NCBI GenBank assembly: GCA_963806485.1
Contig: CAWDXY010000004.1
Span: 893,349 to 957,348 of the forward strand
DNA: 64,000 nt
Direction: 5' to 3'
DNA from: an uncultured delta proteobacterium
GTDB taxonomy: Bacteria; Desulfobacterota; Binatia; Binatales; Binataceae
Shown here: positions 8,713 through 62,114 of the stretch, piece after piece
Position numbering within the stretch: the first letter of the stretch is position 1
Layout of the letters: every line of letters begins with the position of its first letter
Position numbers and translations under genes: made by a program
Notes under the pieces: model-generated
The model's input: only the letters and a program-made list of their open reading frames with translations
What the model was told of the DNA's origin: nothing
Database searches by the model: none

Positions 8713-8736
8713 CCTTCACCGCCAAGAAAAACTTGT

Positions 8737-19088: not shown

Positions 19089-20070
19089 GGTTGACCTGGA
19101 GCACGTTCACCATGTTTTCGCCCACTAGTCCGTAGAGAGGGGCGGATGTGTCAGCCTGCAATATCTGTTCGATCTCCGTCCGCACCTGACCTTCGTCGCG
19201 CTTGGTGTCCTTCGCCCATGCAGAAGACACTCGATCAAGCTGATACTCTGCGTTTTGTAGCGTGATGTTGGGATCCAGGCCTGACGCCGAGGTTGTTACC
19301 ATATCTCCGGGCACGTCCTGGAGATTCGCGTCAGGATTTTCCTGCCGCCACATATCAAAGAAGTTCGACTGAATGTCAGAGCCGCTGGCAACTGGGTGAA
19401 TCACTGTCTGAGTCTTTCCACCCGGGAGCTGATTTGTAACAGCTGAGGGGAACTTACCGGGAGTGTCCTTCGAGAAGTTTTCAAAAAAGACGACCGCTAG
19501 ATCCGAAGCCTGGGGCTGGGGCGTTCCCGGATTCTGCTTGATCCAATCCTTTACCACCGCGTCATGGTCCTTGGCCCAATCGGTCACATATTGCGCGTGT
19601 GTCGGATCCGCACTCACCCACGCCTGCGCGAGTTCATTATGATTGTCGGCCCACTGTGCGACTATATGAGGCTGCCCCCCGAACTTATCCTGCTGAAACC
19701 ATGCTTCGATATCCGGCGCAACCAATTGTCCTTTCTTCGGCTCCTCGCCGTACTTGACGATCGGACCAAGCATATTTGCGACCCGATTTCGAAGCGCATA
19801 GTTCGATGCTGCCAGGGCGGACGACGCTGATGCGGAACCATCATAAGACGCGGCAGAAGGTCGGGGCTGAAAGTATTCGTCCTTGGTGAACGGTTGTGCG
19901 ATCAACAGCGAGCCCACCGGTTTGCCGTCTGGCCCGTCTACCATGCTGCCGTTGGCGGTAAACGGGAAAAACGTTTGCCCGATTGCCAATACTGCTAGAG
20001 GGTAAATCAGACAGCAGATCACAACCGAGACGCCCAGGAGAAATAAGCTCTTTGAAATGTAGCTACGCAT
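19051..20070 (-). CDS. kdpC: potassium-transporting ATPase subunit C, long form with internal insertion
   Basis: N-terminal IYPLAVLAIGQTFFPFTANGSMVDGPDGKPVGSLLIAQPFT...FQPRPSAA and C-terminal VPGDMVTTSASGLDPNITLQNAEYQLDRV...VNVLQVNLEL match KdpC ends; 339 aa vs typical ~190. Confidence 0.85.
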   Translation of the reverse strand: MRSYISKSLFLLGVSVVICCLIYPLAVLAIGQTFFPFTANGSMVDGPDGKPVGSLLIAQPFTKDEYFQPRPSAASYDGSASASSALAASNYALRNRVANMLGPIVKYGEEPKKGQLVAPDIEAWFQQDKFGGQPHIVAQWADNHNELAQAWVSADPTHAQYVTDWAKDHDAVVKDWIKQNPGTPQPQASDLAVVFFENFSKDTPGKFPSAVTNQLPGGKTQTVIHPVASGSDIQSNFFDMWRQENPDANLQDVPGDMVTTSASGLDPNITLQNAEYQLDRVSSAWAKDTKRDEGQVRTEIEQILQADTSAPLYGLVGENMVNVLQVNLELRKHFGAPPA

Positions 20071-20090
20071 GGCTTCCTCGCAAGAGATCT

Positions 20091-22247: not shown

Positions 22248-22318
22248 TTTTGTTCTCCAAATTTCCTCGATCTATGAGCTTATGGGCTCCTTCGAACTTT
22301 CCTCTCCGTCGCAATGAC

Positions 22319-24136: not shown

Positions 24137-24173
24137 GGCTTTGTCTCCTCTGTGGTGATCCTGTTGTAACTGT

Positions 24174-24254
24174 CTAGAACCACTCGGGCCGGATCATCGC
24201 GGCCAACAGGTAAATAAATACCAACGCGGCCACTATCGCTGTCATGATTATCAT
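24174..24254 (-). CDS. kdpF: potassium-transporting ATPase subunit F (26 aa)
   Basis: Minus-strand ORF MIIMTAIVAALVFIYLLAAMIRPEWF directly upstream of kdpA; single-TM peptide resembling KdpF; not in ORF track (too short); coordinates +/- 2 nt. Confidence 0.75.
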   Translation of the reverse strand: MIIMTAIVAALVFIYLLAAMIRPEWF

Positions 24255-24263
24255 CGCTGCCTC

Positions 24264-24359
24264 CTAGATCTTCTCGCACGCGACCAAAAACGCGAAACAG
24301 AGGCCGAGGCTGATGAGCCCCAAGAGGAACGTCCCAGGCAACCAGATGGCCACATCCAT
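24264..24359 (-). CDS. conserved 31-aa hydrophobic mini-protein upstream of kdpF (copy 1)
   Basis: ORF MDVAIWLPGTFLLGLISLGLCFAFLVACEKI; stop 9 nt before kdpF start with GGAGG in between; paralogous ORF before second kdp operon keeps frame and hydrophobicity. Confidence 0.55.
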   Translation of the reverse strand: MDVAIWLPGTFLLGLISLGLCFAFLVACEKI

Positions 24360-24533
24360 AGATTCATCCTACCTTTCCGCAAGCGATGAGCTGGCGGCAT
24401 GCTTCTCGAGATTCAGTTCAGCTGCCCTCAAAGCCTTTCGGATAGCCGAACGTAGACAACTCCGATTAAGAAAATTGCTACCGTTATGCCGACGAAAAGC
24501 ATGTCGAGCATGGTTCTCAAGCCTCAGGAGCAA

Positions 24534-24552
24534 GGCAGCACAAACCATGCCT
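24534..24552 (-). promoter_or_regulatory. candidate sigma-54 (-24/-12) promoter for kdp operon 1
   Basis: Minus strand reads AGGCATGgtttGTGCTG vs consensus TGGCACGnnnnTTGCW with conserved GG and GC at correct spacing, ~170 nt upstream of the mini-ORF. Confidence 0.25.
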
Positions 24553-24782
24553 CGGTATTTTCTATACGAATGCTATTTTTTTCGTCAGGGACGACTGGCG
24601 AGGGTTTCAAAATGATAAGTGACAGTGCGAATCGAAGGCCGGCAGGCTCTAGAGCCAAGTCGATATGTGGTAGTTCGATCAGGGTCAGGGCTGCAAGGGA
24701 TGTAGCTAACGGATACAGAAGTTGCGGGGCCGTTATCTATCGACCCCGCAACCCTTGACCTTGAAGCCAAGAAGGCCGCTAG

Positions 24783-25796
24783 TTATTGAGGCTGTCCGAA
24801 ACGGCTTGCTAATTGCAAATTGACTTGAAGAACATTGACAAATTTTTCCCCAAACAAGCCTCCTAGAGGAGCCGATGCGTTCGCCTCGAGTATTTGCTCG
24901 ATTTGATCGTGCACCTGTTTCGGGTCCAGTTTTTTATCGGCAGCCCATTTCTGAGAGACGCGATCCAGCTGATATTCCGCATTATCTAGAGTGATATGCG
25001 GGTCGAGGCCTGAGGCCGACGAGGTAACCATGTCACCGGGGACATCCTGGAGCGCTGCGTCTGGATGGTCTTGTCTCCACATGTCGAAGAAGATCGATTG
25101 CACATCCGATCCACTTGCGACCGGCTCGATGTCGGTCTGCGATTTGCCATTAGGCAGCTGCTTGGTCACTGGCGATGGGAACTTGCCGGGATTGTCCTTG
25201 GAGAAATTCTCGAAAAACAGTACAGCCAGGTCCGAGGGCTGTGGCTGTGGTGTGCCCGGATTCTGCTTGATCCACTCGTCCACCGCGCTCTTATGACTTT
25301 TGGACCAGTCAGTTACGTACTGAGCGTGAGTAAGATCGGCGCTTATCCATCCTTGCGCCAGCTCGTTGTGATCGTCAGCCCATTGTGCAACGAGATGCGG
25401 CTGACCCTGGAATTGATCTTTCTGAAACCACGCCTCGACATCCGGCGCAACCAACTGGCCAGCTTCGGGGCCGACCTTATATTTCACGATAGGTCCCAAT
25501 TGCCGGGCCACTCTGTCTCGTAGCGCGTAGTTAGATGCAGCGAGCGCCGATGAAGTACTGGCTGAGGCATCGTACGATGCCGCTGAGGGCCGTGGCCAGA
25601 AGTACTCGTCCTTTGTGAACGGCTGTGCGATCAACAGTGAGCCGACCGACTTGCCATCCGGTCCTGTGACCATGCTGCTATTGGCGGTAAAGGGAAAGAA
25701 GGTCTGGCCGATCGCCCACACTGCAAGCGGATAGGCTATCGCGCAAACTACGACTGTCGCAGTTAGGAGTATCAGGCTTTTGACTATGTTTCGCAT
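24783..25796 (-). CDS. kdpC: potassium-transporting ATPase subunit C, second copy (long form)
   Basis: ~75 percent identical to 19051..20070 product incl. the internal insertion. Confidence 0.85.
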   Translation of the reverse strand: MRNIVKSLILLTATVVVCAIAYPLAVWAIGQTFFPFTANSSMVTGPDGKSVGSLLIAQPFTKDEYFWPRPSAASYDASASTSSALAASNYALRDRVARQLGPIVKYKVGPEAGQLVAPDVEAWFQKDQFQGQPHLVAQWADDHNELAQGWISADLTHAQYVTDWSKSHKSAVDEWIKQNPGTPQPQPSDLAVLFFENFSKDNPGKFPSPVTKQLPNGKSQTDIEPVASGSDVQSIFFDMWRQDHPDAALQDVPGDMVTSSASGLDPHITLDNAEYQLDRVSQKWAADKKLDPKQVHDQIEQILEANASAPLGGLFGEKFVNVLQVNLQLASRFGQPQ

Positions 25797-25826
25797 CGCT
25801 TTTCTTATCCTCGAATGGAACCGTCC

Positions 25827-27992
25827 CTAGGCCACCACGTGCATTGTGGTGAGTATTATGTCGATAAGCTTTATGCCGATGAACGGTAAAATTACGCCGC
25901 CGACTCCCCAGACCATCAGATTTTTGCGCAACAAAGCATCGGCGCCGAGTGGCTGATACTTGACACCTTTCAGCGCCACTGGAATCAGGATTGGAATGAT
26001 GACGGCGTTGAAGATGACCGCCGACAGGATCGCTGACGTGGTCGAGTGAAGATTCATGATGTCCATGGCCTTGAGCCACGGCAGCGTACCGGCAAATAGC
26101 GCAGGGATGATCGCGAAATACTTGGCAACGTCGTTGGCGACCGAAAATGTCGTTAGCGCGCCGCGTGTCATCAGCAATTGCTTGCCAATCTCCACGACCT
26201 CGATCAGCTTGGTAGGATCGGAATCGAGGTCGACCATGTTGCCGGCTTCCTTAGCAGCCTGCGTTCCGGAGTTCATCGCCAGCCCGACGTCTGCCTGCGC
26301 CAGCGCGGGAGCGTCGTTGGTGCCGTCGCCAACCATCGCAACCAGCTTGCCTTCGCCCTGTTCTTTGCGGATGTAAGCCAGCTTCGATTCAGGAGTGCAT
26401 TGAGCGACGAAATCATCGACGCCGGCATGCCTCGCAATCGTCGCAGCAGTGAGCGGATTATCGCCTGTGATCATCACGCTGCGTACACCCATCGCGCGTA
26501 GACGTTGCAGACGCTCGCTGATGCCAGTTTTGAGGACGTCGGACAGTACGATGACGCCGACAATGTTTGCGCCCTCGGCCACCACGAGCGGCGTCGCTCC
26601 CTGCGAGCCGATAGCGTCGACTACAGAATCAAGATCCGATGGCATCGTGCCTGATTGGCGCTGGACAAACTTAGCCACCGCGTCCGGCGCTCCCTTGCGG
26701 ATCTGTTTGCCGTCGGGAAGATCGACACCGCTCATGCGGGTCTGCGCTGAAAAGGTAACAAAGCTCGTACCATTAGGAGCAGTCACATCGGCCGGAGTTC
26801 CGCCGCGATCAAAATGTAGTTTGACGATGGTCTTGCCCTCAGGGGTCTCATCGGCGATCGAAGCAAGTGCCGCCAAGCGTCCGACTTGCTGTGCGGTGTA
26901 TCGGCCTACCGGCAGGAAATCAGTCGCGTGCCGGTTACCCATGGTGATCGTGCCCGTCTTGTCGAGTAGGACCGTATCGATGTCGCCTGCGGTTTCGACG
27001 GCCTTACCGCTCTTGGCCATGATGTTCGCTTGCAGTGCGCGATCCATTCCGGCGATGCCAATGGCTGCCAGCAGCGCGCCGATCGTCGTCGGGATCAGAC
27101 ACACGAGCAACGCAACAAGCGTCGGTACATCCGTGCCCAGACTCTTTAGCGGTTCGGTGAGTCCGAGATATCCCGACATGTAGATCTCGGCATTCAGCGC
27201 CATCGGCCACAGCGGAATCACTACGATCAAAAACGCAAGGCTCAATCCGGCCAAAGCTAGTGTCAGCGCGATCTCGTTGGGTGTCTTCTGGCGTACAGCT
27301 CCCTCGACCAGAGCGATCATGCGATCGAGAAATGATTCGCCGGTTGCCGCTGTAATCTTCGCGACGATGCGATCCGAGACCACGCGAGTTCCGCCAGTAA
27401 CGCCAGAACGATCGCCGCCGGCCTCGCGGATCACAGGAGCTGATTCGCCGGTGATCGCTGATTCATCAACCGAAGCGATTCCTTCGATGATTTCGCCATC
27501 GCCCGGAATGATTTGCCCGGCCTCAACCACGACTCGGTCACCGGGTCGCAGGTCAGCGGACGACACCTCCTCGATCATATCCTTGCCCTTGAGCCGATAC
27601 GCCGGCGTATCCTTGCGGGCTTTTCGCAAGGATTCCGCCTGGGCGCGCCCGCGCGCCTCGGCCAGGGCCGTCGCGAAGTTCGCGAATAGGACAGTCAGCC
27701 ACAGCCAGAAGTCGAGAGCCACAAAGTAGCTGATAGGAACCTGGCTCACAGATTGACTGACCGCCGCTTGTATAATGAACATCAGCGTCAGTACGGAGCC
27801 GATTTCGACGACGAACATGACCGGGTTGCGCCACTGTACGTCCGGCCGCAGCATCAGGAATGCTTCCTTGATAGCTGGCCAGATCAGCTCGGGAGCGAAC
27901 AACGCCTGTGCGCGTGATCGCCGGGGCGGAATGGGCATCTCTGGCGTGATGTGAATCTCAGGTGGTGCAGGGTACTTTTTTAAAGCTTCCAT
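25827..27992 (-). CDS. kdpB: potassium-transporting P-type ATPase subunit B, second copy
   Basis: [17 protein letters not shown]; ~85 percent identical to first KdpB. Confidence 0.95.
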
Positions 27993-28053
27993 TATCGAGT
28001 CCTTAATGAGTCAATCGCGGATAAACGTGTCAGGCTCTAAGAGCTGGATCTAG

Positions 28054-29871
28054 CTAACCCCCGAAGGGTAGTGGCCCAAGATGTTCTGCGACCGGCCCGA
28101 GCGCGGCTACCGGCAGGAACAGCAAGGCGCCGACGATAGCGATCGTTCCGACCAGCAAGCATCCGAAGGTGAAAGTATCGTCGCGCAGAGTGCCCAAGCC
28201 GAATGGAGTGGTCTTTTTCATTCCAAGGAAACCCGCCATGGCGATCGGCGCCAAAATCGGCAAAAACCGGCCGAGAAGGATTACGAATCCCGCCGCTATA
28301 TCCCATGGAACAGCTTCGGGCGCGGCGTTCGGATTGTTATTCAGGCCGTAGGTGACTCCCAGGCCATCGAATGCGGAGCCGTTGTTAGCTGAGTCCGACG
28401 AGAATTGGTAAACGATTTGTGAGAATCCGTGGGATCCTGGATTGCTCTCGGCCTTTATTCCCCAGTTTGTTGCAGAGAACAATCCCGCCGGGAAAAGGAT
28501 GACCAACGGATGTACGAGCAGAGCAATTAGCGCCAGTTTCACTTCGCGCGCGCCGATCTTCTTTCCAAGGTACTCGGGCGTCCTGCCGACCATCTGCCCA
28601 ACTACGAAAATGCCGATGATGAGAAAGAGCAGCATGTTGATCATGCCGACACCTTTGCCGCCGTAGATGCAGTTCACCCACATTCCAAAGAAAGGCGACA
28701 ACGCCGCCATCGGGTTAAGGCTGTCGTGCTCGCAAATGATTGCGCCGCAAGTGAAATCCACCGTGGCGGCCGCAAACGTCGAGCCCGCGGAAGTCCCGAA
28801 GCGCAGCTCCTTGCCCTCCAAGTTGCCGAGATGCTGATCGACGGGCAGGCCTGCCACGGCAGGCAGAGTAATGTCGCGCTTGCCCCCGGGCGCAGTGGCG
28901 CTTGCAATCGTGAACGTTCTACTTTGCGAATGAGCTGTAAGCCCTGGGTTAGGCTTTAGAGTATCGAAGTAGATTGTCCACAGAATTGTACCCGCGAGCA
29001 GAACAAACATCACCGAGAATATGACCAATGAATGGCGCGGGCGTCGTAACATCGCGCCGTACATCCACACCAGCGCCATCGGAAACCACATCATCGATGA
29101 GGTAGTGATGAAGTTCGACGCGGCATCCGGGTTTTCAAACGGGTGCGCCGAATTCATCCCGAAGAATCCGCCGCCATTCGTTCCCAACATCTTCATTGGA
29201 ACGAAGGCAGCCAGAGGACCAGTTACAATCGTTTGCTGTTTGGGTTGATTGTTGTTGTCCGTGCCCATCGCGGCAGGCTCGAGCGTGTTTACCTGATAGT
29301 CGCTCTGATAGGTCATCGGCATGCCTTGAACCAAAAAGACCATGCTCAGGATGAAGACCGCAGGCAGGAACGTGTAGAACACAACGCGCCACATATCCTG
29401 AAAGAAGTTGCCTACGTGCTCATCGCTGCGAAAGGCTCGAATGATCGCTGTCAGGGCGCAAAACCCTATCGCCGCCGAAAGAAAAAACATCGGAAGGCAA
29501 AAGAATATCTGGCTGAAATTCGAGAACGACTGGTCGCCGGAATAGTGTTGGATGTCGGTGTTGGTACTGAAAGATATGACGGTATTAAAAATGGTACTCG
29601 GCGCAAGTGCTCCGAGGCCGCGTGGGTTTAGCGGCGCCCACGGCTGAAGCACCAATACCAGGTATCCGAAAGCATAAAGAACCGTATTGAATACAAGCAG
29701 AGAGACCGCATACTGCTTCCAGTTCTGCGGTCCGCTGCTAACCCGGTCCTCACACCACTTGAATAGCAGTGGAGGACGGTAATGTCCGTCCATGATCCAG
29801 GCCAGATACCTGCCTAGAGGATAGGAGACAGCAACGCTGAAAATGAGAACCGTGATAGGCAAAGACCACAT
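28054..29871 (-). CDS. kdpA: potassium-transporting ATPase subunit A, second copy
   Basis: 605 aa, ~80 percent identical to first KdpA. Confidence 0.95.
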   Translation of the reverse strand: MWSLPITVLIFSVAVSYPLGRYLAWIMDGHYRPPLLFKWCEDRVSSGPQNWKQYAVSLLVFNTVLYAFGYLVLVLQPWAPLNPRGLGALAPSTIFNTVISFSTNTDIQHYSGDQSFSNFSQIFFCLPMFFLSAAIGFCALTAIIRAFRSDEHVGNFFQDMWRVVFYTFLPAVFILSMVFLVQGMPMTYQSDYQVNTLEPAAMGTDNNNQPKQQTIVTGPLAAFVPMKMLGTNGGGFFGMNSAHPFENPDAASNFITTSSMMWFPMALVWMYGAMLRRPRHSLVIFSVMFVLLAGTILWTIYFDTLKPNPGLTAHSQSRTFTIASATAPGGKRDITLPAVAGLPVDQHLGNLEGKELRFGTSAGSTFAAATVDFTCGAIICEHDSLNPMAALSPFFGMWVNCIYGGKGVGMINMLLFLIIGIFVVGQMVGRTPEYLGKKIGAREVKLALIALLVHPLVILFPAGLFSATNWGIKAESNPGSHGFSQIVYQFSSDSANNGSAFDGLGVTYGLNNNPNAAPEAVPWDIAAGFVILLGRFLPILAPIAMAGFLGMKKTTPFGLGTLRDDTFTFGCLLVGTIAIVGALLFLPVAALGPVAEHLGPLPFGG

Positions 29872-30829: not shown

Positions 30830-31276
30830 ACAGGTCGATTGGTTGCCGAGATCCTTTATCGTGAGAGGAGCAGGAACTATGCCTTAGACCGAAGTCAGCC
30901 AATATCAAGTGCTTTTCTCTGCTAAGCCGTTGTCCCACCTCGAGCGTGAAACCCAGGCATTTCAGCGTGAAATCAAATCGGGGTCTTTGCGAGGCGAGTT
31001 CGGCTGATCGCAAATTGACTGCGAACCTATCACCAGGACCGCACCTCTGAGGTTGCGGCCCCACGAGCACCGACCTTCAAGAACTGTCGCGTTACCTGGT
31101 ATATGCGACCGCCATTTCAAAATGAACGATGGACGCTATTCAAAAAGAAATCGCGTGTGCGCAGAGTAAACCACAACTCAAGCAAATCGCAGCTTTTTTC
31201 GAACGGCACACGCTATGCAGATGAATTACAGACGCCGATGCCGCTTCCGAGGATGCGGCAGAGGCCGGGAGAAGTG

Positions 31277-31633
31277 ATGAAGCGAATTGAATTAGTAATT
31301 GAACCATCGGCGCTCGACCGTTTCATAGAGGCCGCGCAAGTGATGAATTTGTCTGACTTTGACGTCACTGAAGTTCGCCGCTCGCCGTCGCACGATCGGC
31401 GAGAACGCCAGCGACTATACCGAGGTCAAACGTTCATCATCGATCTCGAAGAGCGGATCAAAGTCGACATCAACGTAGCTGACGAAGCAGCGAGCAGAAC
31501 CGCGCATGTATTAGTCGCGAGGGTCAATCCTGAAAGCGTCTCGATTCTTAGGCTCGACCAGGTGACTTTGTTCGAAGGTTCCGAGCCGATCAGAGTTACA
31601 GCTTCGTCCCGCGGGGCCGACGTTGCAGCATAG
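31277..31633 (+). CDS. PII-like (GlnB-fold) signal-transduction protein, second paralog (start at internal Met of ORF 31103..31633)
   Basis: MKRIELVIEPSALDRFIEAAQ...LYRGQTFIIDLEERIKVDINVAD parallels GlnB LYRGAEYMVDFLPKVKIEIVV. Confidence 0.55.
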   Translation: MKRIELVIEPSALDRFIEAAQVMNLSDFDVTEVRRSPSHDRRERQRLYRGQTFIIDLEERIKVDINVADEAASRTAHVLVARVNPESVSILRLDQVTLFEGSEPIRVTASSRGADVAA

Positions 31634-31906
31634 CGTCCGGAGGAACGAAGCCTATCTCTCCGAGAGATCAGCGGGTTTCTCAACACGCCCGTTCAACGCT
31701 TCCTGTTGAGCCAAGCTTTTGCTCGGTCACGACGGCTTATTAAGATGCCAGCGGTTCTCATAATATTGGCGGTTTTGATCGTAGTCGCCCTCTACTTTGA
31801 TCGAGGAGAGAAGCACGGCGATACGCAAGACGACGCTAAGGAGACGAATCCCTCAAACATATTGGATCCGCCGCGCTGATGCTGCTTTCGTAACGCTGCC
31901 GTTGAG

Positions 31907-32545
31907 ATGCATTCTGGTTACGACGGACCAAGGTTTACTATGAAGCCAAACCCTATGGTTCAGTACCCTTTCCTGGGCGGCTTTCTCGGCGCCAAGCTGG
32001 ATGGGATCTCGCTCATCCAAGTGCATCCGCTTGACCCATATACTCTTGTCAATCTGCAGCCGTCTGATCCGCCTGCCGCCGAGCCGAAGCACGCAAGGGT
32101 TCCTTCATCCGCAACCCGACAAAATTCGAGCCGCACCAGGGAAAGACCGGCCTTCACAGCCGAGGAAACGCGGCACCATTTCGCGATTGAAGCATTGGAC
32201 AAGTCCGGACCATTTCGGCCGCAGCCATATATGTACACCTGCGTCCGATGCAAATGGATCTTTCGCATCAACGATTCGCGCGGTTCCGTCATAGCTCTGG
32301 ACGGGTTGGGCAGGCGTCTGCTCGAGCCTGAAAACGCAAAGCGGGTCGTGACCTTTCACCGAGGACCGTGTCCTGCCTTTCCAGTCCGCGAGTACCTCCT
32401 ACCCGAGGTTGAGCGCGAAAATCGATTTCGTCGATATATTTCAAGAATTGTCGAAGTACTACGCGGCGTCACCGTCAGACATCGAAGCCGCACTAGCGAG
32501 CAGGAAACGACCCGGCTTGAGAACCAGGAACGCCTCAAGGTCTGA
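31907..32545 (+). CDS. hypothetical protein
   Basis: 212-aa ORF, no recognised motif (one CxxC pair). Confidence 0.3.
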   Translation: MHSGYDGPRFTMKPNPMVQYPFLGGFLGAKLDGISLIQVHPLDPYTLVNLQPSDPPAAEPKHARVPSSATRQNSSRTRERPAFTAEETRHHFAIEALDKSGPFRPQPYMYTCVRCKWIFRINDSRGSVIALDGLGRRLLEPENAKRVVTFHRGPCPAFPVREYLLPEVERENRFRRYISRIVEVLRGVTVRHRSRTSEQETTRLENQERLKV

Positions 32546-32555
32546 AAACGTAGCC

Positions 32556-33026
32556 TTAGGCAGCGCGGCCTGCCTTTTCGTGATCAGCATTACCGGCACG
32601 CAGTCGGCTCGCCAGTTCTAGCGCGATTCTTCGCCACAGTCGGGGGTATTCGTCGGCAACCGCCGAAAAGTCAGGTTCAGCGATCCTGGCTACTACAGAA
32701 TCAGAAGTAGCGGTGACCGAAGCCGATCGGGGCGTAAATGGATCGACAACGGCCATCTCGCCGACGTGCTCACCGCCTTTTTTCCAAGCCACGATGCGTC
32801 CGTCGATCGTAATCGAAAACCTGCCACACAGGATCAGGAAAAGATCTGTATCGGATGCACCCTGCTCTACTAGATTCGTTCCGGCGCGTACCTCTTCCAA
32901 TTTTAAGTGCCGTTCGACGACGACGGCTAGTTCCTTGTCGCGGATCAGCGGCTGGGAGATCAACGCGTCAATGAGACGCAATTTTCCGTCCGCGCCCTGG
33001 AACGATTTCAACAGGGATTCTTTCAT
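32556..33026 (-). CDS. cyclic nucleotide-binding (CAP effector-type) domain protein
   Basis: FLILCGRFSI...GEMAVVD...RSASVTATSDSVVARI fits the cNMP-binding beta-roll pattern (G-E-x-A-L ... R-S-A-T-V). Confidence 0.6.
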   Translation of the reverse strand: MKESLLKSFQGADGKLRLIDALISQPLIRDKELAVVVERHLKLEEVRAGTNLVEQGASDTDLFLILCGRFSITIDGRIVAWKKGGEHVGEMAVVDPFTPRSASVTATSDSVVARIAEPDFSAVADEYPRLWRRIALELASRLRAGNADHEKAGRAA

Positions 33027-33353
33027 GATTCCCTCATCTTCTCCCGTGGATGTTTTTGTTCTCCAGTGGATGTTTTGTTTGTTGACGATTGAAGGAGAAC
33101 CTGCAGTTTCTTATACCGCGTTGAGGTCTATCGCTGTTTCGTTGGAAGCGACCTCGCCATCTAACTCCGCATTAATCGTGCCGAACGGGGAGCCAGAGGA
33201 AGGACGAGCTTTTCGCTAGCCAAAAGCTCGACACATTTCAAATTGAACGGCGCTGACGATTTGATTTTGAAATGCCGCTCTTCTTGCCGCTCGAAAAAAT
33301 CGTTGACTGTCATGATAGTTGGTGACGGCACAGTTAATGCTGAATAGCAGCGC

Positions 33354-33824
33354 ATGGCCAGCATCGTTATATCCAGGTCGCGTTCACGCGCTGACTCGGT
33401 TGGCCAGAGAGATTTGAGGCTGGTCTCGAGTGGTGGTCTAAACGACCTCGTTGTCACTCGAGCTTCAGAGCAATCCGCAAAGACTGCTGTGATCGCCTGT
33501 TTGATAGGCCGCGATCCTGACAACAGCGAACTGCTCCATAAAGCCTCGGCCGCTGCTCGCGAACGTGACGGCGAATTCTACATCGTTCTGGCAGATTCGC
33601 CGCGCACCCGATTTGGAAAGGCACAGGTTCGCGCTCTAATCGAAGTCGCGCTCCTTGCGAGCACCCTTGGCGCGAAAGTCGTGTGGCTCGAATCGTCCGA
33701 CAGAGTCCGCGATCTAGTCAAGTTAACGCGTCAAATTGCACATCGACCGGATCTTCGTTCATCGAAGTCGGCCGGCTCTGTTCTCTCGGCTATTCCGGGT
33801 GCACAGTTTATTCCGGTCTGCTGA
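33354..33824 (+). CDS. stand-alone universal-stress-protein-like domain protein resembling the Usp region of KdpD
   Basis: AVIACLIGRDPDNSELLHKASAAARERDGEFYIVLADSPRTRFGKAQVRALIEVALLASTLGAKVVWLESSDRVRDLVKLTRQ parallels E. coli KdpD ILLCIGHNTGSEKLVRTAARLASRLGSVWHAVYVETPALHRLPEKKRRAILSALRLAQELGAETATLSDPAEEKAVVRYARE (from memory). Confidence 0.45.
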   Translation: MASIVISRSRSRADSVGQRDLRLVSSGGLNDLVVTRASEQSAKTAVIACLIGRDPDNSELLHKASAAARERDGEFYIVLADSPRTRFGKAQVRALIEVALLASTLGAKVVWLESSDRVRDLVKLTRQIAHRPDLRSSKSAGSVLSAIPGAQFIPVC

Positions 33825-33899: not shown

Positions 33900-34904
33900 G
33901 TGGACGAAGAACGCATAGCCCTGGATCGTCCGATGCCTCGTCTCATTGACGATTTTGCTCCGCTGCTCGAATCGAACGTACCGCTGATGCAGCGCTTGCT
34001 GGAGAAGGCGAAGCGCGCAGCGGCCAGCGACGAGACGATCCTTCTCACCGGCGAGAGCGGTACCGGCAAAGGCGTCCTCGCACAGCAGATCCATAAATGG
34101 AGTCGACACGCCGTAGGTCCTTTCGTTACTGTTAACTGCACGCGTCACTCCGAACATCTTCTCGAAAGCGAGTTGTTCGGTCACATGCGGGGCGCGTTCA
34201 GCGGTGCCGTGAAGGACAAGCGCGGAGGGCTCGAAGCCGCGCACGGCGGCTCGGTCCTGCTCGACGAAATCTCAGATCTGACCCTTCCCCTTCAGCGCAA
34301 GCTCCTGCACTTCATCAAGGAACAGAGCTTCGAGCGGATGGGGAGCGAAGCCACGATTAACGTCGATGCTCGGATGATTGCTGCGTCCAGCCGCGATCTG
34401 GCAGCGGAAGCCGCGGCACGGCGATTCCGTGACGATCTTTACTATCGACTGAGTGTAATCACTTTGCGGGTTCCGACGTTGCGTCAACGTCAGGACGACA
34501 TCTTGCCTCTGGCAACGCGAATGCTCGCCAGCTCCGCTTTCCATCACGCTCGTCCAAGTCTGCGCCTTTCTTTCGAGGCGTCTACGGTGCTGCTCCGCTA
34601 TCGATGGCCGGGAAATATCCGCGAGTTGCGCAACGTCATCGACCGCGCTGTCGTTTTGTGCACGGGCGAGGTGGTAACGCTTGATCATCTTGCGGACGTT
34701 CTCAGTAATAGCCCTCGACCGCTCGCGACGACCACGCCGCCTTCGAGCCTCGACGACATCGAGCGTGAACATATCATCCGTGTTATGGCGGAAAGTCCGA
34801 CGCTAGAAACCGCAGCACACAGGCTGGGCATAAATATCACCACGCTATGGCGCAGGCGCAAACGCTACGGACTTGATTCGAGCCCCAACGTCCCGAGAAG
34901 TTAG
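33900..34904 (+). CDS. sigma-54 interaction domain transcriptional activator lacking a receiver domain (AAA+ + Fis HTH only); GTG start with GAGGAGG RBS
   Basis: GESGTGKG Walker A, GAFSGA loop, C-terminal HTH; ~60 percent identical to central/C-terminal part of RR 16609..17943. Confidence 0.85.
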   Translation: MDEERIALDRPMPRLIDDFAPLLESNVPLMQRLLEKAKRAAASDETILLTGESGTGKGVLAQQIHKWSRHAVGPFVTVNCTRHSEHLLESELFGHMRGAFSGAVKDKRGGLEAAHGGSVLLDEISDLTLPLQRKLLHFIKEQSFERMGSEATINVDARMIAASSRDLAAEAAARRFRDDLYYRLSVITLRVPTLRQRQDDILPLATRMLASSAFHHARPSLRLSFEASTVLLRYRWPGNIRELRNVIDRAVVLCTGEVVTLDHLADVLSNSPRPLATTTPPSSLDDIEREHIIRVMAESPTLETAAHRLGINITTLWRRRKRYGLDSSPNVPRS

Positions 34905-35008: not shown

Positions 35009-35250
35009 GTGCCCACTGAATGCCCACTCCACGCTCCTGGTGCGTAACACTAGGTGGCGTCGGGAACCAAAAAAACCCCGTTCTCATTAGCCGGCCGACG
35101 CTAGGGCTCTTGTTATACTGTGCAGAAGGGGATTTGAAGACCGGTGGGGCCACCGGGCCCCTTCCTCCTCCAGCCCCTTATTTATTAAGTACTTACGGCG
35201 ATGCGCACAACACTAGGGATCGCCTAAAGTGCCCACTTACTGCCCACAAT
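35009..35250. repeat. structured intergenic repeat element, copy A (8-mer direct-repeat pair TGCCCACTgaaTGCCCACT, ~100-nt variable spacer, conserved 59-nt hairpin/polypyrimidine module, second 8-mer pair)
   Basis: Module gatttgaagaccggtggggccaccgggccccttcctcctccagccccttatttattaag also at 58451-58509; TGCCCACTGARTGCCCACTCC also at 58328-58349 with the same ~100-nt spacing. Confidence 0.7.
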
Positions 35251-36065
35251 TTTCGGATTCGGATCCCTTATAAGCAGCAAGCCTGCCGCAGTTCGCCAAT
35301 TTCGAGCCACTCTACTCCATCCGACGCGCGATGGCAGTTCGGCTAGTTTTGATCCTTTCTCAGCCGCAAGAGCTGTTTGATATTTCTTCAGATGGAGTCA
35401 GCGACACGTCACGCGGTTCGAGCATTTGGCCCACATTCCTAAGCCCGACAACACATTCGAAGCAGGAACTGTTCGACGCAGCAGTGCAGGCTAGGATGAG
35501 CGATCTCGTCTGCCGCGAGTACAACTGTCACCGAGCCACTCGGTAGAAATCCTCGACCACCGCAACGCCGACAGCAGATAGTTCTTATCCCTACTATTTT
35601 CCCGAGCCTCTGAGCGTGCCGATCCGCGAATTGGCATTGTCGGTAATCGTGAGCGCTCTGTTTCGTGGTCACGCTTGGAGTAAAAGTCACCCAGATCGAA
35701 CAACCCATTGTGGCTGCGCAAAACTCCATCCCGTGTGAGATTCCGGGTTGCGGCATTTACTGTACGCTGAAGAGCATGAGTCGACCGATCGCGCTGGATA
35801 GTGCGGGTAGCTGGTATTCGCCATGTAGATTTTTGCGGGTGATGGCAACTACGCCAAAAACGCGTTTTTCCGAATCGCCGATAGCGAACATCAACTGCCC
35901 AGATTGACGAGCACGAGCGGGAGTCGTGGCGTCTGAATCAACTCGTCTATTTCATCACACCCTACTCGAAGTGGCCCAAAATCTTACGCGAAATTGAATT
36001 TTGAGTAGGCACAGGCGCACGCGAATCACTTTCGATATCTCAGAAATAGCCGATGTTGCCCCGCC

Positions 36066-40021: not shown

Positions 40022-42307
40022 TTACTTTACATAGATTTCGGTGGTGGAAGTTGTCACGGGCGATGAGTTTACGAAGCCACCAATTACAAGGACGTTGCCG
40101 TTCGGCAACGGCGCTGCCGCGTCGACCGAGCGATTTACTATCATTAAACCGGCCAGCGAGAACTTGTTTAGCGTCGGATCGTATAGTTCGGCATTCGTCG
40201 ATCCTCCGCTGGTTATGAGGACGTTCCCGCTTGCGAGAAGGGTTGCTGTAGGTCCGAAGAGGATATCCAACATAGGACCTGTCGCGACAAACTGGCCCTC
40301 GCTTGGGTCGTAGAACTCCGCGCTGGTATTTCCCGACCCCCCTGCGGCGAGTACGATTGTTTGCGAATTCATCTGCAAGGCGGTTAGGGTGAAACTCTGA
40401 CGCGCCGACTTCATATCCGGAATTTTCGTGAACTTCTGAGTATTCGGATCATATATCTCAGCCGATGCCAGGGGTTCACCTGAGGATCCGCAACCACCCG
40501 CGATGAGAACAGTTCCATCGCTGAGTAAGGCCGCTGCGTGCGACTGCCTTGCGGCCTGCATCGGGTTTGGAACAGGGGACCATATATCGTTCGTCGGATC
40601 ATAGATCTCGGCGACATTTAGAACATTGCCGCCTTCGTCAATTCCTCCAGTGACCAGAACCGTTCCGTTTAATTGGGGGTCGGTTTCGTTCATAAGGAGT
40701 GTCGCAGTGTGCATGTATCGGGGTGTGCTCAACACGTGAGTCACCGTGTATCCGGGGTTTATTCCCTGGTTCATAGGATTGTAAATCCATTCGTTTGAAT
40801 AGGGGGTAACCGCCTGAGACTGACAGGTGACTTGCGACATAGTGTTCAAAGGGCCCACCGAGCCGCCAGCAATCAAGACACTGCCGGCGTCCGGACCGGT
40901 CGTGAACAAAGTGGCGGTATGTCCGACCAGTCCGAGTCCCTGCTGAATGTTTGATGATGTATTGTTTGCCGAGTCGTAGAGTTCGTCGAAAGTCGGTTGT
41001 GCCTGGACGTCTTCGCCACCAACCACAAGCAGCGTTCCATCGGGTAGACCGGTCGCAGTATGGCCGGTTCGGGCTTGCTCCATAAAACCCACCTGGACGA
41101 GACCAGAGCCGTCGGAAATGAAGAGATTGGCAGACGAATCCGAACTGGTGTAGCCAAAGACCTTGTCGACAGGCTTACTGCCGCCAGTCACGAGCACATC
41201 TCCATTAGCTATTGTCGCCGCCGCGTTGGCTGCGCCGGCCGTGAAGTTACTCGTATCTAATTCGGTAAAATTCCCGTTAGAGTAGACCTCGGCACTTTCG
41301 TTAGCGTCCCCACCCGCGACTAAGACTCTTCCTCCAGCTAAAAGCGACGACGAGAGGTAGGCGCGCGCTTCGTTCATCGGCGGTCCCTCAGAAAAGCCTG
41401 AAGAGTTATAAATCTCCGTAGTGTTGACAGGATTCTGTTGCGCGTCCCATCCACCGGCAATCAACACGTTCCCGTTAGGCATCAGGATTGCGGTATGGTC
41501 ACGGCGCGGATGTATCATCGGCCCGATCAAGGTGAACGAACGGGTCATCGGATCATAAATCTCAGCGCTGCTAAGGGTTGTCCCCTTATCGTCAAATCCT
41601 CCCGCGATCAGCACGGTGCCGTTCGCCAGCAGTGTCGCAGTGTGTTCGCTTCGCGGAGAGGTCATGGACCCAACTGTTTGGAAGCTTTCTGAGGCCGGGG
41701 TATAGAGTTCCGCGCTGCTCAGAGCCCCAGAGTTCGTTAGAGAACTAGTGAGGCTAGGACTGCCACCGGTGATGAGAACGGTGCCGTCCGGCAAGAGTGT
41801 TGCCGTATGACCACTACGAGAGGCATTCATATCTCCAACTGGGACGAAAGAGCTCGTACCAAACTTATACAATTCAGCCGTATTTGATGTCGTATTTGAT
41901 ACGGTCTCGTGACGCCCGCCTGCGATAAGGACATCGCCAGTTTGAAGAGAGGTTGCGGTATGCCCCACTCGCGGCTCATTCAAAGAAGCGCCAAACGAAA
42001 ATGAGCCAGTCAAAGGATCGTAGATCTCCGAGGAGTTGAGAACAAAATTACCTCTTCCACCCACAATCAGGACTTGACTCTCACCGACCAGCAGCGTCGC
42101 TGTATGCCCAGCCCGAGAGTAGTTCAGCGTTCCACCCGCCATGAACGTTGGACTCGGCGACGGCGATGCCGAGCAACTACCGCATGGGTCAAGACATCCT
42201 GCATTGTTCAGCACGAGCGCGAACGCCAATGCCAGCAATGCGGCACTGCCCAGGCGGCGCATCCAGAGAGACACTAGACGAATTCCGGATAGGTTGGTCG
42301 CGATCAC
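40022..42307 (-). CDS. Kelch-repeat beta-propeller protein, secreted/lipoprotein
   Basis: Signal peptide + Cys (LLALAFALVLNNAGC); >10 repeats of RSGHTATLLxDGTVLIxGG (Kelch motif). Confidence 0.85.
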   Translation of the reverse strand: MIATNLSGIRLVSLWMRRLGSAALLALAFALVLNNAGCLDPCGSCSASPSPSPTFMAGGTLNYSRAGHTATLLVGESQVLIVGGRGNFVLNSSEIYDPLTGSFSFGASLNEPRVGHTATSLQTGDVLIAGGRHETVSNTTSNTAELYKFGTSSFVPVGDMNASRSGHTATLLPDGTVLITGGSPSLTSSLTNSGALSSAELYTPASESFQTVGSMTSPRSEHTATLLANGTVLIAGGFDDKGTTLSSAEIYDPMTRSFTLIGPMIHPRRDHTAILMPNGNVLIAGGWDAQQNPVNTTEIYNSSGFSEGPPMNEARAYLSSSLLAGGRVLVAGGDANESAEVYSNGNFTELDTSNFTAGAANAAATIANGDVLVTGGSKPVDKVFGYTSSDSSANLFISDGSGLVQVGFMEQARTGHTATGLPDGTLLVVGGEDVQAQPTFDELYDSANNTSSNIQQGLGLVGHTATLFTTGPDAGSVLIAGGSVGPLNTMSQVTCQSQAVTPYSNEWIYNPMNQGINPGYTVTHVLSTPRYMHTATLLMNETDPQLNGTVLVTGGIDEGGNVLNVAEIYDPTNDIWSPVPNPMQAARQSHAAALLSDGTVLIAGGCGSSGEPLASAEIYDPNTQKFTKIPDMKSARQSFTLTALQMNSQTIVLAAGGSGNTSAEFYDPSEGQFVATGPMLDILFGPTATLLASGNVLITSGGSTNAELYDPTLNKFSLAGLMIVNRSVDAAAPLPNGNVLVIGGFVNSSPVTTSTTEIYVK

Positions 42308-45300
42308 TCGGTGCTCCCCGTGAGTACAACCGTGCTCCTTGGATGCGAAGGGTCATCGGTCGTGATGGTGAGGCTATCTCTAAAGTTGCTCTTCTTGCGT
42401 GGAGAGGCAAAAGTGACTGACAAGTACAAGCTTTCGCGGTATCCGACGCTGAACGCCCCTCCACCGTTAACAAAGAAAGGTGCTGCTGCCGGACCGACGC
42501 TGCCGTGTAAAACGCCCCTGCCCGAGTTCGAGATAAGCAGGGACTCGATTACTGCCACACCAGGCTCGGCTACGGGAAAGCTGAGGGTCGCCGGCACTGC
42601 GAGAATTCCAGGGACACCTCGACCGGACAAGGAGATCCGCCTGGTTGAAGATTTGGGACCGTTGGTTATGATGTGCAAAGCATCTTTTGTAGTGGACGTT
42701 GTACTAGGGGAGAACTCCACGGCCACTTGCATAGATTGTCCAGGCGACAACGAGAACGGTCCCCCGCCGGTTGTAACAGAGTAAGCAGAGTTCTGCTGAC
42801 TCTCCACCTCGCCAGTGATAGTACCTGTGAGGCTGCTATTTGTAACGACGATCGATTTTGTGAGGGTAGTTTGTAGCCCTACAGAACCAAATGCAATCGC
42901 GCGGCTACTAACCTCCAGCTCCTTACCAGCAGAGCTGGCGACGGATTTTATAGCTGGAGCGGGTTTGAACGAGGCGGCGGCTAAATCGTACCGCAATACC
43001 CGATTGTTCCCTCCGTCGGCAATGAATAGGTTTCCATTTTGATCAACCGAAACACCTTTCGGGCCGCAGAGTGTCTCAGGACCCGGGCCGTTTGTGGGGC
43101 AGCCTTGGCCGCTGTTCTGGAAATCTCCATTCTGCCCGAACACCAGGTCGGCGGTCGTGTCACCTGCGTTGTACTCGAGTACGCGGTCGTTGCCGAAATC
43201 GCTAACATACAAATTTTCGTCACCGTCCAGCGCCAGCGCCACCGGAGCGCACAACGTGCCAGGTCCCGTTATGGTAGGGTCGCCGCTAGCAGTGCCTGGC
43301 ATGCATCCTTGAGCGGTCACAAAGCTTCCGCTCTGACCGAAGACCTTGTCCGGGACATCGTCGCCTGCGCCTATTTCTCCACTGTTCGCGTTCAGGGGCG
43401 TATTGTATTCCAGTACGCGATTATTGCCGGAGTCGGCCACGTATAGATTACCGATCGCATCTACTGCTACGTCACCGCTGGGCCCGGGCAGGTTGCCCTC
43501 CGTCTGAAAGCACAGACCGTCGGGACCGCCTCCGCACAAGGCCGTTACAAAGCTTCCGTTCTGACCGAAAACCACATCGGCACTTATGCTGCTCGCTCCA
43601 CCGTGAAGGTCCTGGTTCAGCGGAGTATTGTACTCAAGCACGCGATTATTACCTACGTCTGCCACGTACAGGTTCCCAAGCGAGTCCCCGGCGATGCCTA
43701 CCGGGTCACAGAGACTGCCGCTACCGATGCTTTTCGCTCCTTTTCCGAGGTTGCAGCCGGAAGCCGTGAAGTCGCCGTTCTGACCCAACACGTGATTTGC
43801 CGTGGCGCCAATGCAAGGGTACGATTGGCACGCTGCAAAGGGTGTATCGTACTCCAAAATACGGTTGTTGCCGGAGTCTGCGACGAATAGATTTCCGAGA
43901 GCATCGGTTGTAAGTCCCGATGGTTCGCACAGAGAGCTTGCTCCCACCTCCGTGCAGACGTGACTATCAATGGGATGGAGATCTGCCAGGAAATCAGCGG
44001 CACTCGTGCGAAAGTCGTTTTGACCAATGACGAGATCCGCGGCTGCCCCGTTTGCAAAGGCGGCGGCGCTGCGCCACGCGAGTATCCTATTGTTTGAAGT
44101 GTCCGAAACGTAAAGCCTATCTTGCGTATCGACCGCGATGAAATCGGGGTTGTTCAAGCCCGTGCCATCGAGTGCATTGATGACATCGTGCTCGAAATCC
44201 ACTTGTCCGAGCACTCGATCTGCGGTCGGACTATCAGAGGAGATTGGTGCATCGAAACTGAGAACGCGATTATTTCCGGAGTCCGCGATGAAGAGTGTGC
44301 CTTGGTTGTCGAGACCGAGCCCACCGGGAAGACAGAGACTATCGGGACCAATTCCGTACACGTCACCAAGATCAGAACCATTGTTGCACCCGCTTATCCC
44401 GTTCGTGAAGGTTCCGTCCTCACCAAATACCAGTTCAGCAATCGGGGATCCGGATTCTGGACCGGTGCCACTTATATCAATGGCGTATTCAAGCACTCTA
44501 TTGTTGTGGTAATCTGACAAGTAGACGTGTCCCGTGGCGTCTACAGCCACGCCTCCGACTGTTCCATCACCCAAACAGAGGCTGTCGGGACCGATTATTT
44601 CGGCGTTGCCCTGTAAGTCGAAAAATTCAATGTCGCCAGGTGCAGTGCCTTCGTCGCACTCACCATGTGCGAAGCTATCTTGGCCGAATACTATATCAGC
44701 AGTCGTATCGCCCGCTCCTGCTTCACCGCTACCTGCATTCAGGGGTGTGTTATACCGGAGGACCCGATTGTCAGCACTGTCGACGACGTATAGGTTGCCG
44801 ACGAGATCGACCGCCAAACCTGTGGGTCGGCATAGGCTGTCCGCGCTAATTCCGCCGGCTTCCCCCTGCTTTCCGTTGTAGCACGCCCTCGAGACGAAGG
44901 ACCCGTTCTGACCAAAGACAAGAGCTGCAGTTGTGTTACCGCCCGAATTCAGAGGCGTGTTGTATTCGAGCACCCGTGAGTTCCCCATGTCGGCCACAAA
45001 GACATTCCCTGATGTATCGACGGCGACTGCCGCCGGATTACAAAGAGAGTCCTTGTTGGGGGGATCATTACACATGTTCGATGTAAACTTGCCGCCCTGC
45101 CCGAAAACAAGCGCCGCCGAAAGTCCGGAACAGGGAAATGCCTGGCATGCTGTGAACGGCGCATCATATTCCAGAACACGATTGTTGCTTGTATCCGCTA
45201 CGTATAGATTTCCGGCGGTATCGATGGCGATTCCACCCGGCAAGTTGAGACTGTCGCCTCCAACAACTCCGCCCACGGTGTCAACGTTTGGGCTGCACGC

Positions 45301-45762
45301 GAATCCATGGTTACCATCAACCGACTGAAAATCCGGTTGTCCAATTACCAGATCAGCGGGTTCCCCGTTTTGGAGTGAAACGACGTCCTGCCAGCCCAGA
45401 ACACGATTGTTGCCCGTGTCCGTGATATATAAGTGTCCTTGCGAGTCTACAGCGACCGCGCTGGGCTCATTGAATCCCGAGGGCCCAGGATTGTTGACGC
45501 CACAATGATTGTAATCCGGATGACCCAGTACAGCCGTCGCCACGGTTGTCTCGTTGGCCACTACCTTGTTCACCGCGACGAACAATACCACGCAGACTAA
45601 GATCGCAATCCTTCCGAACCCGAATGCACTCTGCTTCAAGGGACGCCGACTCCGGGATGCGGCGACGCGTATTGCGCCGACTTCATTCGCGCGATCCGGC
45701 TGGGATGGCCGTCGCCGGAATGCATGAAGCTCGGCAACGCCGCAGCAGCGATGGTGGCGCAA
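42304..45762 (-). CDS. NHL-repeat beta-propeller protein with C-terminal choice-of-anchor-D domains, secreted
   Basis: ~14 repeats of LxxPxGxAVDxxGNLYVADxGNNRVLEY (NHL motif); C-terminal FGSVGLQTTLTKSIVVTNSS... ASH-like units; stop overlaps Kelch gene start by 4 nt (operon). Confidence 0.85.
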   Translation of the reverse strand: MRHHRCCGVAELHAFRRRPSQPDRANEVGAIRVAASRSRRPLKQSAFGFGRIAILVCVVLFVAVNKVVANETTVATAVLGHPDYNHCGVNNPGPSGFNEPSAVAVDSQGHLYITDTGNNRVLGWQDVVSLQNGEPADLVIGQPDFQSVDGNHGFACSPNVDTVGGVVGGDSLNLPGGIAIDTAGNLYVADTSNNRVLEYDAPFTACQAFPCSGLSAALVFGQGGKFTSNMCNDPPNKDSLCNPAAVAVDTSGNVFVADMGNSRVLEYNTPLNSGGNTTAALVFGQNGSFVSRACYNGKQGEAGGISADSLCRPTGLAVDLVGNLYVVDSADNRVLRYNTPLNAGSGEAGAGDTTADIVFGQDSFAHGECDEGTAPGDIEFFDLQGNAEIIGPDSLCLGDGTVGGVAVDATGHVYLSDYHNNRVLEYAIDISGTGPESGSPIAELVFGEDGTFTNGISGCNNGSDLGDVYGIGPDSLCLPGGLGLDNQGTLFIADSGNNRVLSFDAPISSDSPTADRVLGQVDFEHDVINALDGTGLNNPDFIAVDTQDRLYVSDTSNNRILAWRSAAAFANGAAADLVIGQNDFRTSAADFLADLHPIDSHVCTEVGASSLCEPSGLTTDALGNLFVADSGNNRILEYDTPFAACQSYPCIGATANHVLGQNGDFTASGCNLGKGAKSIGSGSLCDPVGIAGDSLGNLYVADVGNNRVLEYNTPLNQDLHGGASSISADVVFGQNGSFVTALCGGGPDGLCFQTEGNLPGPSGDVAVDAIGNLYVADSGNNRVLEYNTPLNANSGEIGAGDDVPDKVFGQSGSFVTAQGCMPGTASGDPTITGPGTLCAPVALALDGDENLYVSDFGNDRVLEYNAGDTTADLVFGQNGDFQNSGQGCPTNGPGPETLCGPKGVSVDQNGNLFIADGGNNRVLRYDLAAASFKPAPAIKSVASSAGKELEVSSRAIAFGSVGLQTTLTKSIVVTNSSLTGTITGEVESQQNSAYSVTTGGGPFSLSPGQSMQVAVEFSPSTTSTTKDALHIITNGPKSSTRRISLSGRGVPGILAVPATLSFPVAEPGVAVIESLLISNSGRGVLHGSVGPAAAPFFVNGGGAFSVGYRESLYLSVTFASPRKKSNFRDSLTITTDDPSHPRSTVVLTGSTE

Positions 45763-45891
45763 GGCTTGGGCTCGGACGCGGGCATCCGCGACCTGGACGA
45801 TACAATCCGCTTCATGCGCGAAACTCCCCCGCGTTCCAGCTAACGGTCTCCAAAAATTCGCGTGACGGTCATCCTGAAGTCCATACTGCGC

Positions 45892-58327: not shown

Positions 58328-58510
58328 CTGCCCACTGAGTGCCCACTCCCAGCTTCCACGGCGTGGTCTGGCGTACCGGCCTTTTTGAGAAGCTCGCGAC
58401 TTTCCTACCTCGCGTCGCCTAAGGTGACGCTTGGTAACCTGGGGCATACGATTTGAAGACCGGTGGGGCCACCGGGCCCCTTCCTCCTCCAGCCCCTTAT
58501 TTACTAAGGA
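58328..58510. repeat. structured intergenic repeat element, copy B
   Basis: See copy A; ~150 nt upstream of sulfotransferase start. Confidence 0.7.
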
Positions 58511-58663
58511 CTCATGGCGGTTTGTACAACCTGCGGATCGGCGAGAGCGATCACCTAATTTTGATTGGCGCAGGGCCAGGCGTCGATGGAGAATCTGATT
58601 CGGGTCGACATTTCAGCACCGTATGTTGTAAGTGTCGTGAACGTCAGCAAGGGAGTCCTGAAA

Positions 58664-60136: not shown

Positions 60137-60165
60137 AAGTCGTCCCTCATAGTCCGGCCTATTTC

Positions 60166-62092: not shown

Positions 62093-62114
62093 ATCCGATC
62101 GCGTTCATCGCGAG

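Follow-up and report, generated by a model that had tools for sequence, protein, structure and literature searches.

Repeated 5' fragments of the tRNA-Sec gene selC in a Binataceae genome and their interpretation as att junctions of tandem integrative islands

The repeated unit and its surroundings

The stretch of DNA analysed here (the window) comprises 64 kb of a contig from an uncultured member of the Binataceae and contains two intergenic copies, copy A and copy B, of a repeated unit that includes the 5' part of selC, the gene for tRNA-Sec. Between the two copies (35.2-58.4 kb) Pfam scans recognised Kelch, NHL and Ig-like surface proteins, a CHASE2 cyclase, an MFS transporter and HTH proteins, and no integrase, also not in two ORFs of 362 and 389 aa that were themselves without matches. 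The interval below 35132 carries two kdp operons, two-component and sigma-54 regulators, phage-like genes and a tyrosine integrase gene (7047-8285), which has the same orientation as the tRNA fragments and no adjacent tRNA or repeat pair. The two kdpABC operons are arranged in tandem (19051-29871, minus strand) and both KdpC ORFs, with about 338 aa and two KdpC-profile stretches each, are approximately twice the usual length. The sigma-54 activator (33900-34904, plus strand) has AAA+ and HTH_8 domains only, without a receiver domain, and is preceded by short ORFs (31103-33824) with weak or no family matches. The integrase gene adjoins a ParB-N6/N4 methylase fusion and a small terminase subunit (7047-10493, minus strand), a phage-like remnant. 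An AAA_16/adenylate-cyclase-type gene is found in two ORFs (3833-6496 and 6566-6997; region 3833-6997, plus strand), possibly split by a frameshift, and homologues with 1129-1202 aa are encoded a short way upstream of selC in three related loci (L023, L036 and L071). No selC remnant was found beside the window integrase or the cyclase-like gene. Very large secreted-type proteins are unusually dense in the window (853-2949, 12754-15486, 40022-48585 and 55209-57707); they contain ASH/Cep192-like Ig domains and NHL, Kelch and beta-helix repeats, and several lie inside the putative islands.

The annotated parts of the window are given below, P and P' being the arms before and after the selC fragment in the sense of the tRNA.

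1-35132, minus strand: putative island 2 or composite of islands, from the P' arm of copy A past the start of the window (the 3' half of selC is absent from the window)
7047-8285, minus strand: tyrosine integrase of the selC-associated family (Pfam Phage_integrase, central and SAM-like domains)
35010-35027, minus strand: copy A, P'-arm pair GTGGGCA-N4-GTGGGCA, at +105/+116 after tRNA position 39
35028-35132, minus strand: copy A, P'-arm spacer of 105 nt directly after the anticodon loop (divergent homology)
35133-35171, minus strand: copy A, selC 5' fragment, positions 1-39 (selC match, weak Rfam tRNA-Sec match, alignment with complete and truncated selC)
35172-35264, minus strand: copy A, element-derived block 5' of the tRNA, P arm (homologous to the integrase-to-selC spacer of intact elements)
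35230-35247, minus strand: copy A, P-arm pair GTGGGCA-N4-GTGGGCA, putative arm-type sites (position about -76 to -61 relative to the tRNA start in various genomes)
35133-58451, minus strand: island 1, 23.3 kb between the crossover points (bounded by the two selC fragments; Pfam scans)
58329-58346, minus strand: copy B, P'-arm repeat pair (pair search and alignment)
58347-58451, minus strand: copy B, P'-arm spacer of 105 nt (about 75% identical to the P' arms of L024, L058, L081, L004 and L045)
58452-58490, minus strand: copy B, displaced chromosomal selC 5' fragment, positions 1-39 (100% identity; the related locus L037 has a complete selC there)
58491-58560, minus strand: copy B, degenerate upstream block, a fossil P arm (aligned with L037; homology to integrase-proximal spacers)

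An identical core of 54 nt (GATTTGAAG...CCCCTTATTTA) occurs exactly twice on the plus strand of the window, at 35131-35184 and 58450-58503, with 0 mismatches, and 0 occurrences are expected in shuffled sequence; the two-copy unit reported in a first-pass annotation of this DNA is therefore real. In BLAST the likeness between the copies extends over about 92 nt at 88% identity (35131-35222 versus 58450-58540). The phased direct repeats that the annotation had described in both copies are present as TGCCCAC-N4-TGCCCAC at 35010-35027 and 58329-58346, as is a second pair just downstream of copy A at 35230-35247. These are the sole pairs in the 64-kb window and all lie on one strand, and the single 7-mer TGCCCAC is not enriched on its own (10 observed versus 7.6 expected in the window). 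The spacer between pair and module, described as non-conserved, about 100 nt long and identical in length, was confirmed to be equally long in copy A and copy B (103 nt with the annotation's bounds and 105 nt when counted from tRNA position 39), with little sequence conserved between them. The judgement that the copies are non-coding was also upheld: the ORFs spanning them (35020-35346 and 58453-58839) have no family support, and the frame that they share at the start is then broken by an indel between the copies. The same indel ruled out a small protein encoded on the plus strand of the module.

ARAGORN found no tRNA in the window and an Rfam scan of the whole window gave no family at the gathering score. 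A permissive Rfam scan returned chance-level matches only (E > 1), one of them to tRNA-Sec (RF01852) on the minus strand, covering model positions 12-46 only with 16.7 bits against a gathering score of 47. In the minus-strand direction the module reads GGAGGAGG-AA-GGGGCC-CGGU-GGCCCC-A-CCGGU-CUUCAAA, which corresponds to an acceptor 5' strand of 8 nt, a D-stem of 6 bp closed by a loop of 4 nt, the 5' side of the anticodon stem and an anticodon loop containing UCA. Such a D-arm is a hallmark of tRNA-Sec. The tRNA likeness stops right after the anticodon loop CUUCAAA.

A core of 29 nt was scanned against genome contigs, with one genome per species, and at least 118 matching loci were found among the matches listed, nearly all in Candidatus Binataceae/Binatia MAGs and mostly complete selC genes; viral contigs scanned for the core gave no match. 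ARAGORN, applied to the first 60 loci, identified a complete tRNA-SeC(tca) of 93-96 nt at the match in 50 of them, and two complete relatives scored 72.4 bits in Rfam, well above the same gathering score. Copy A is 97.6% identical to Binataceae selC over positions 1-42 and copy B is 100% identical over positions 1-39. A tRNA-Sec cloverleaf has an acceptor stem of 8-9 bp, a 6-bp D-stem, an anticodon arm with UCA, a long variable arm and a T-arm. The 3' half of selC (T-arm and acceptor 3' strand) is absent anywhere in the window, ARAGORN found nothing and the Rfam score is far below the threshold; the window copies are fragments of the tRNA-Sec gene and not genes. Given that the module is selC positions 1-39, the CCUCCUCC tract that had been called anti-Shine-Dalgarno-like represents the acceptor-stem strand GGAGGAGG read in complement, and what had been drawn as a "GC hairpin" is the 6-bp D-arm of the tRNA.

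Truncated selC copies and an empty site in related genomes

Truncated selC copies like those of the window were found in other genomes, at least 21 among the matches listed. One class of truncated copies, to which copy A and copy B belong, has its tRNA end at positions 39-42, and GTGGGCA-N4-GTGGGCA follows 105 nt further on. The P' pair is at +105/+116 also in L004, L024, L045, L058, L065 and L101, and deviates by 1-3 nt in L041, L081 and L087. Alignment of the P' spacer of copy A revealed the semi-conserved motifs GCTAGCAAAATCG and GTTAC..GGAT.ACG, and L076 is 80% identical across all of copy A.

On the other side of the tRNA fragment many selC copies, truncated or complete, share a conserved block of about 95 nt with a GTGGGCA pair at about -76 to -61 and the invariant TAATAAATAA just before the tRNA. 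The P-arm block of copy A has this invariant sequence and a TTGTGC motif, and the block is kept in 24 loci. The part of copy A formed by the selC fragment and the P-arm block (window 35133-35264) is 75-86% identical to the integrase-to-selC spacer of L124, L143, L175, L135, L153, L160 and L116. In copy B both GTGGGCA repeats of the upstream block are lost or mutated, and the same block is present in L037. The TTGTGC motif and the upstream block may be a promoter; a simple sigma-70 scan of the block called none.

The locus L037 is 91% identical to window positions 58452-62109 and has a complete selC at the spot occupied by copy B. The break in homology between the two falls exactly at tRNA position 39, so that L037 represents the uninterrupted target and serves as an empty-site control for insertion after the anticodon loop. 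The flank of L037 on the 3' side of selC has no match in the window. Both selC fragments of the window are on one strand, a complete selC is not found within the 64 kb, and a contig that extends the window by 931 nt contains neither a complete selC nor anything else of relevance.

In all four contigs that carry both a truncated and a complete selC among the matches listed, the truncated copies precede the complete gene on its 5' side, share its orientation and lie 8-80 kb from it, and one of the four contigs holds a three-member array. These observations indicate that the inserted DNA provides a new 5' half and that the old one is displaced.

In a second class of truncated copies (L023, L044, L071, L074 and L115) selC breaks at positions 43-45 and is followed by another conserved arm (..CTAAYCAGCCAAAATCRCCAAC..), and GTGGGCA pairs are absent from this class, which suggests a second element family at the same site.

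The integrase family, its arm motif and alternative readings

In L102, L048 and L116 homologues of the window integrase, with 58-74% identity to it, lie directly 5' of selC on the same strand and end 12-135 nt before the start of the tRNA. A metagenome scan with an alignment of the selC-associated integrases yielded 80 loci. Where at least 200 nt were available after the integrase gene, a complete tRNA on the same strand was found 34-135 nt downstream of it in 29 of 58 metagenome loci, the 29 tRNAs being 12 Sec, 10 Arg-CCT, 1 Arg-TCG, 4 Leu-TAG, 1 Leu-TAA and 1 Val. In 32/70 metagenome loci the integrase gene is directly followed by the exact repeat pair; other pairs numbered only 10 in 718 kb and almost all of these are further att arms. 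Three loci (L124, L135 and L175) have the integrase gene, the P arm, the selC 5' fragment and the P' arm together without a complete tRNA, i.e. an attP-like layout.

The A-tract and the GTGGGCA pair are kept upstream of Sec, Arg and Leu targets alike. Given that the motif is retained whichever tRNA is targeted, it belongs to the integrase system and not to selC or to neighbouring regulators. The repeats are found in both arms, their distance from the core is fixed and they accompany the integrase gene, as attP arm sites do; the GTGGGCA pairs are probably arm-type integrase sites, or possibly excisionase sites. Pfam detected no arm-binding domain in integrase residues 1-75, and a PDB search with the integrase gave generic tyrosine-recombinase matches to the core-binding and catalytic domains only.

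Remnants of the integrase gene, 43 and 62 codons long, precede the P arm in L081 and L060, from which it follows that the integrase gene was lost by deletion in related islands; copy A keeps no such remnant. In the closest metagenome relatives of the window integrase (L119-L123, 83-89% identical) the tRNA is not adjacent, and the pair was found only in L121, about 126 nt downstream of the integrase gene. More distant relatives (41-69% identical; metagenome loci L140, L142, L144, L159-L174, L178, L197 and L198) abut tRNA-Arg(CCT/TCG), tRNA-Leu(TAG/TAA) and tRNA-Val(TAC) in integrase-to-tRNA orientation. Most of these loci keep the A-tract and the GTGGGCA pair, and each has its own TTGNNN or AT-rich block before the tRNA.

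The TGCCCACT direct repeats had been interpreted as sites for response-regulator-type proteins, and an operator for such a protein or for an enhancer-binding protein, e.g. the sigma-54 activator at 33900-34904, would agree with the 11-bp phasing and with the end of the activator gene about 100 nt from the pair of copy A. That the repeats bind a protein is very probable, but they track the tyrosine integrase family: the distance from pair to breakpoint is fixed in many genomes with unrelated neighbouring genes, the pairs that follow integrase genes in the metagenome loci include those of Arg and Leu tRNA elements, and no sigma-54 motif was seen by eye (no GG-N10-GC with correct spacing). We therefore consider operators of this kind very unlikely.

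A novel structured RNA, a small or regulatory RNA transcribed from the plus strand with alternative GC hairpins and the CCUCCUCC tract as an anti-Shine-Dalgarno sequence, was the main proposal of the first-pass annotation, together with a terminator or operator module. It is true that both hairpins can be drawn and that the module does not differ between the copies (100% conservation). However, the plus-strand fold is no better than that of shuffled sequences (z = -0.34), no Rfam family was found, no promoter or terminator was called around the module of copy A, and the sole terminator-like site on the plus strand at copy B (58536-58552) is a weak 5-bp stem. Moreover, the module is the base-for-base complement of selC 1-39 and the limits of conservation coincide with the tRNA start and the anticodon loop, which argues against a plus-strand RNA. 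The minus strand is the informative one; the module is no terminator or operator either, and a new RNA at the repeat is extremely unlikely; a false lead is thereby removed.

Chimeric joins made during assembly at a repeat of about 100 nt are a further concern, given that most of the related records are MAGs and that the contigs of one genome break at this repeat (L052/L065). The same types of junction were nevertheless found in many independent assemblies, including megabase long-read contigs, and an independent Logan contig contains the 698-aa protein of the window (853-2949) exactly, so that an artefact is hardly to be expected.

Two other readings have next to no probability. Functional but unusual tRNA-Sec genes, i.e. 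split, intron-containing or permuted ones, would account for the perfect conservation of the 5' half and for the conserved upstream block; against this, the 3' half is absent throughout the window, the truncated copy stands alongside a normal complete selC downstream in four other contigs, and the sequence after the loop is a variable P' arm and not an intron with conserved ends. A small non-autonomous repeat had also been suggested, and a MITE-like transposable repeat or an IS end would fit a repeated intergenic unit of about 250 bp with three repeat pairs. The link to mobile DNA was correct, but the unit does not transpose: it is found only at selC, always in the orientation of the tRNA and with the same cut position in it, its copies have no common terminal inverted repeats, and it goes with a tyrosine integrase and not with a transposase.

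Probable tandem islands at selC and comparison with known systems

The tRNA identity of the module, the truncated copies with their exact breakpoint and fixed geometry, the polarity in the four contigs with both kinds of copy, the empty site and the link to the integrase family were all observed directly, and together they lead us to read the two copies as att junctions at which the 5' half of selC is replaced. Very probably they are recombination junctions of integrative islands that were inserted, probably in tandem, into the selC gene of this Binataceae genome. The mechanism outlined here is derived from these data and from established knowledge of tyrosine integrases.

In the sense of the tRNA the attP site would consist of an A-tract and GTGGGCA-N4-GTGGGCA (P arm), an AT-rich promoter-like block, selC 1-39, a spacer of about 105 nt and a second pair (P' arm). 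Strand exchange would take place in or at the 7-nt anticodon loop. Integration would then join the 5' half and the upstream block of the element to the chromosomal 3' half, leaving an intact hybrid selC for which the upstream block may provide the promoter, and the old 5' half would be displaced to the opposite end of the island, with the P' arm following it. Copy B (58329-58560) would be this displaced chromosomal 5' half, a junction of the attL type, and its upstream block, also found in L037, an older and decayed P arm. Copy A (35010-35264) has arms on both sides, which indicates the joint of two tandem islands, and would correspond to the attR of the first island fused to the attL of the second. 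The intact selC of the source genome is predicted to lie beyond the low-coordinate end of the window. The boundaries of the 23-kb island are thereby placed exactly, with the crossover after selC position 39 at 35133 and 58452.

No integrase is encoded in the 23-kb interval (35.2-58.4 kb), for which reason we call it a decayed or possibly trans-dependent island; an integrase of the right family is found in the second interval (7047-8285). As it stands, the 23-kb island is not an autonomous element; its own integrase gene may have been lost by deletion. A more general proposal, which we put forward only tentatively and consider rather doubtful, is that a Binatia integrase family enters tRNA genes from the 5' side, has been retargeted among Sec, Arg, Leu and Val genes with one arm code (A-tract and GTGGGCA-N4-GTGGGCA) and donates a likely promoter block together with the 5' half, and that islands without an integrase but with full sets of arms may move in trans by means of, for example, the orphan integrase 7047-8285, an accretion similar to that of CIMEs. 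If this were true, these bacteria would need DNA from a mobile element to express their only tRNA-Sec gene.

That integrative islands target tRNA genes and form tandem arrays is already well established. In the Islander survey islands are bounded by a tRNA gene (tDNA) and a displaced tDNA fragment, with attP sites of about 250 bp, and 2083 anticodon-centred sites and 125 tandem arrays were counted (Hudson, Lau & Williams 2015, PMC4383910); PMC7192596, too, deals with tandem arrays. A 5' fragment is much rarer at islands than a 3' fragment (159 versus 3760; PMC4383910), and the Binataceae selC islands fit this minority class. As in the Islander class (PMC4383910), the fragment marks the end of the island, and in the four contigs with both a truncated and a complete copy it has the orientation of the gene and lies on the expected side; 39/39 positions of the window fragment match selC 1-39 of related genomes. 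Crossover at the anticodon loop, a tyrosine integrase beside attP, tandem arrays and a target restored by the fragment of the element are likewise common to both. The 23-kb interval without an integrase differs in this respect and would fail the Islander integrase filter. In the literature we found no description of this host clade (Binatia) or of selC as a target entered from its 5' side, and no paper on Binatia and selenocysteine. What is distinctive here is the unusual polarity, the clean arm motif and the target-switching integrase family in an uncultured phylum.

Islands at selC in enterobacteria (e.g. LEE and SHI-2) replace the 3' end of the gene and have their integrase gene downstream of it. 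The Binataceae islands share with them the use of selC as a hot spot of tyrosine-integrase elements and differ in that the 5' half is replaced and the integrase gene lies upstream and reads into the gene. The attP site of heterobivalent integrases of the lambda type has arm-type sites (P1/P2 and P'1-3). Short repeats at fixed distances of about 60-120 bp on either side of the core are common to lambda attP and the Binataceae att site, which has a total conserved length of about 260-300 bp; in the latter, however, the repeats are direct on both arms, the sites are putative and no arm-binding domain is recognised by Pfam. CIMEs and accretion at the att sites of ICEs are known in streptococci. 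Like a CIME, the 23-kb island is without an integrase, bounded by att sites and in tandem with other elements at one target, whereas no conjugation genes were seen and the mobilisation of the island is only a possibility.

These findings make selC a busy integration hot spot, with an uncommon 5'-replacing polarity, in the poorly studied soil phylum Binatota. The arm motif is clear and portable, and together with the geometry it could serve for mapping islands in Binatia MAGs and for choosing pairs of integrases and att sites for genetic tools.

Other arrangements at selC were also encountered in the related genomes. In L057 an unrelated tyrosine integrase gene lies directly 3' of a complete selC in reverse orientation, which is the classical arrangement, and in L061 another lies in reverse orientation directly 3' of a truncated copy; these two integrases have 28-31% identity with that of the window. 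In some genomes two complete selC genes lie at a distance of 3-4 kb from each other, and in others a truncated and a complete copy are only 1 kb apart, these close pairs being drawn from JAJYVB010000073.1 (L020/L042), JAJXZF010000031.1 (L051/L097) and L128-L130.
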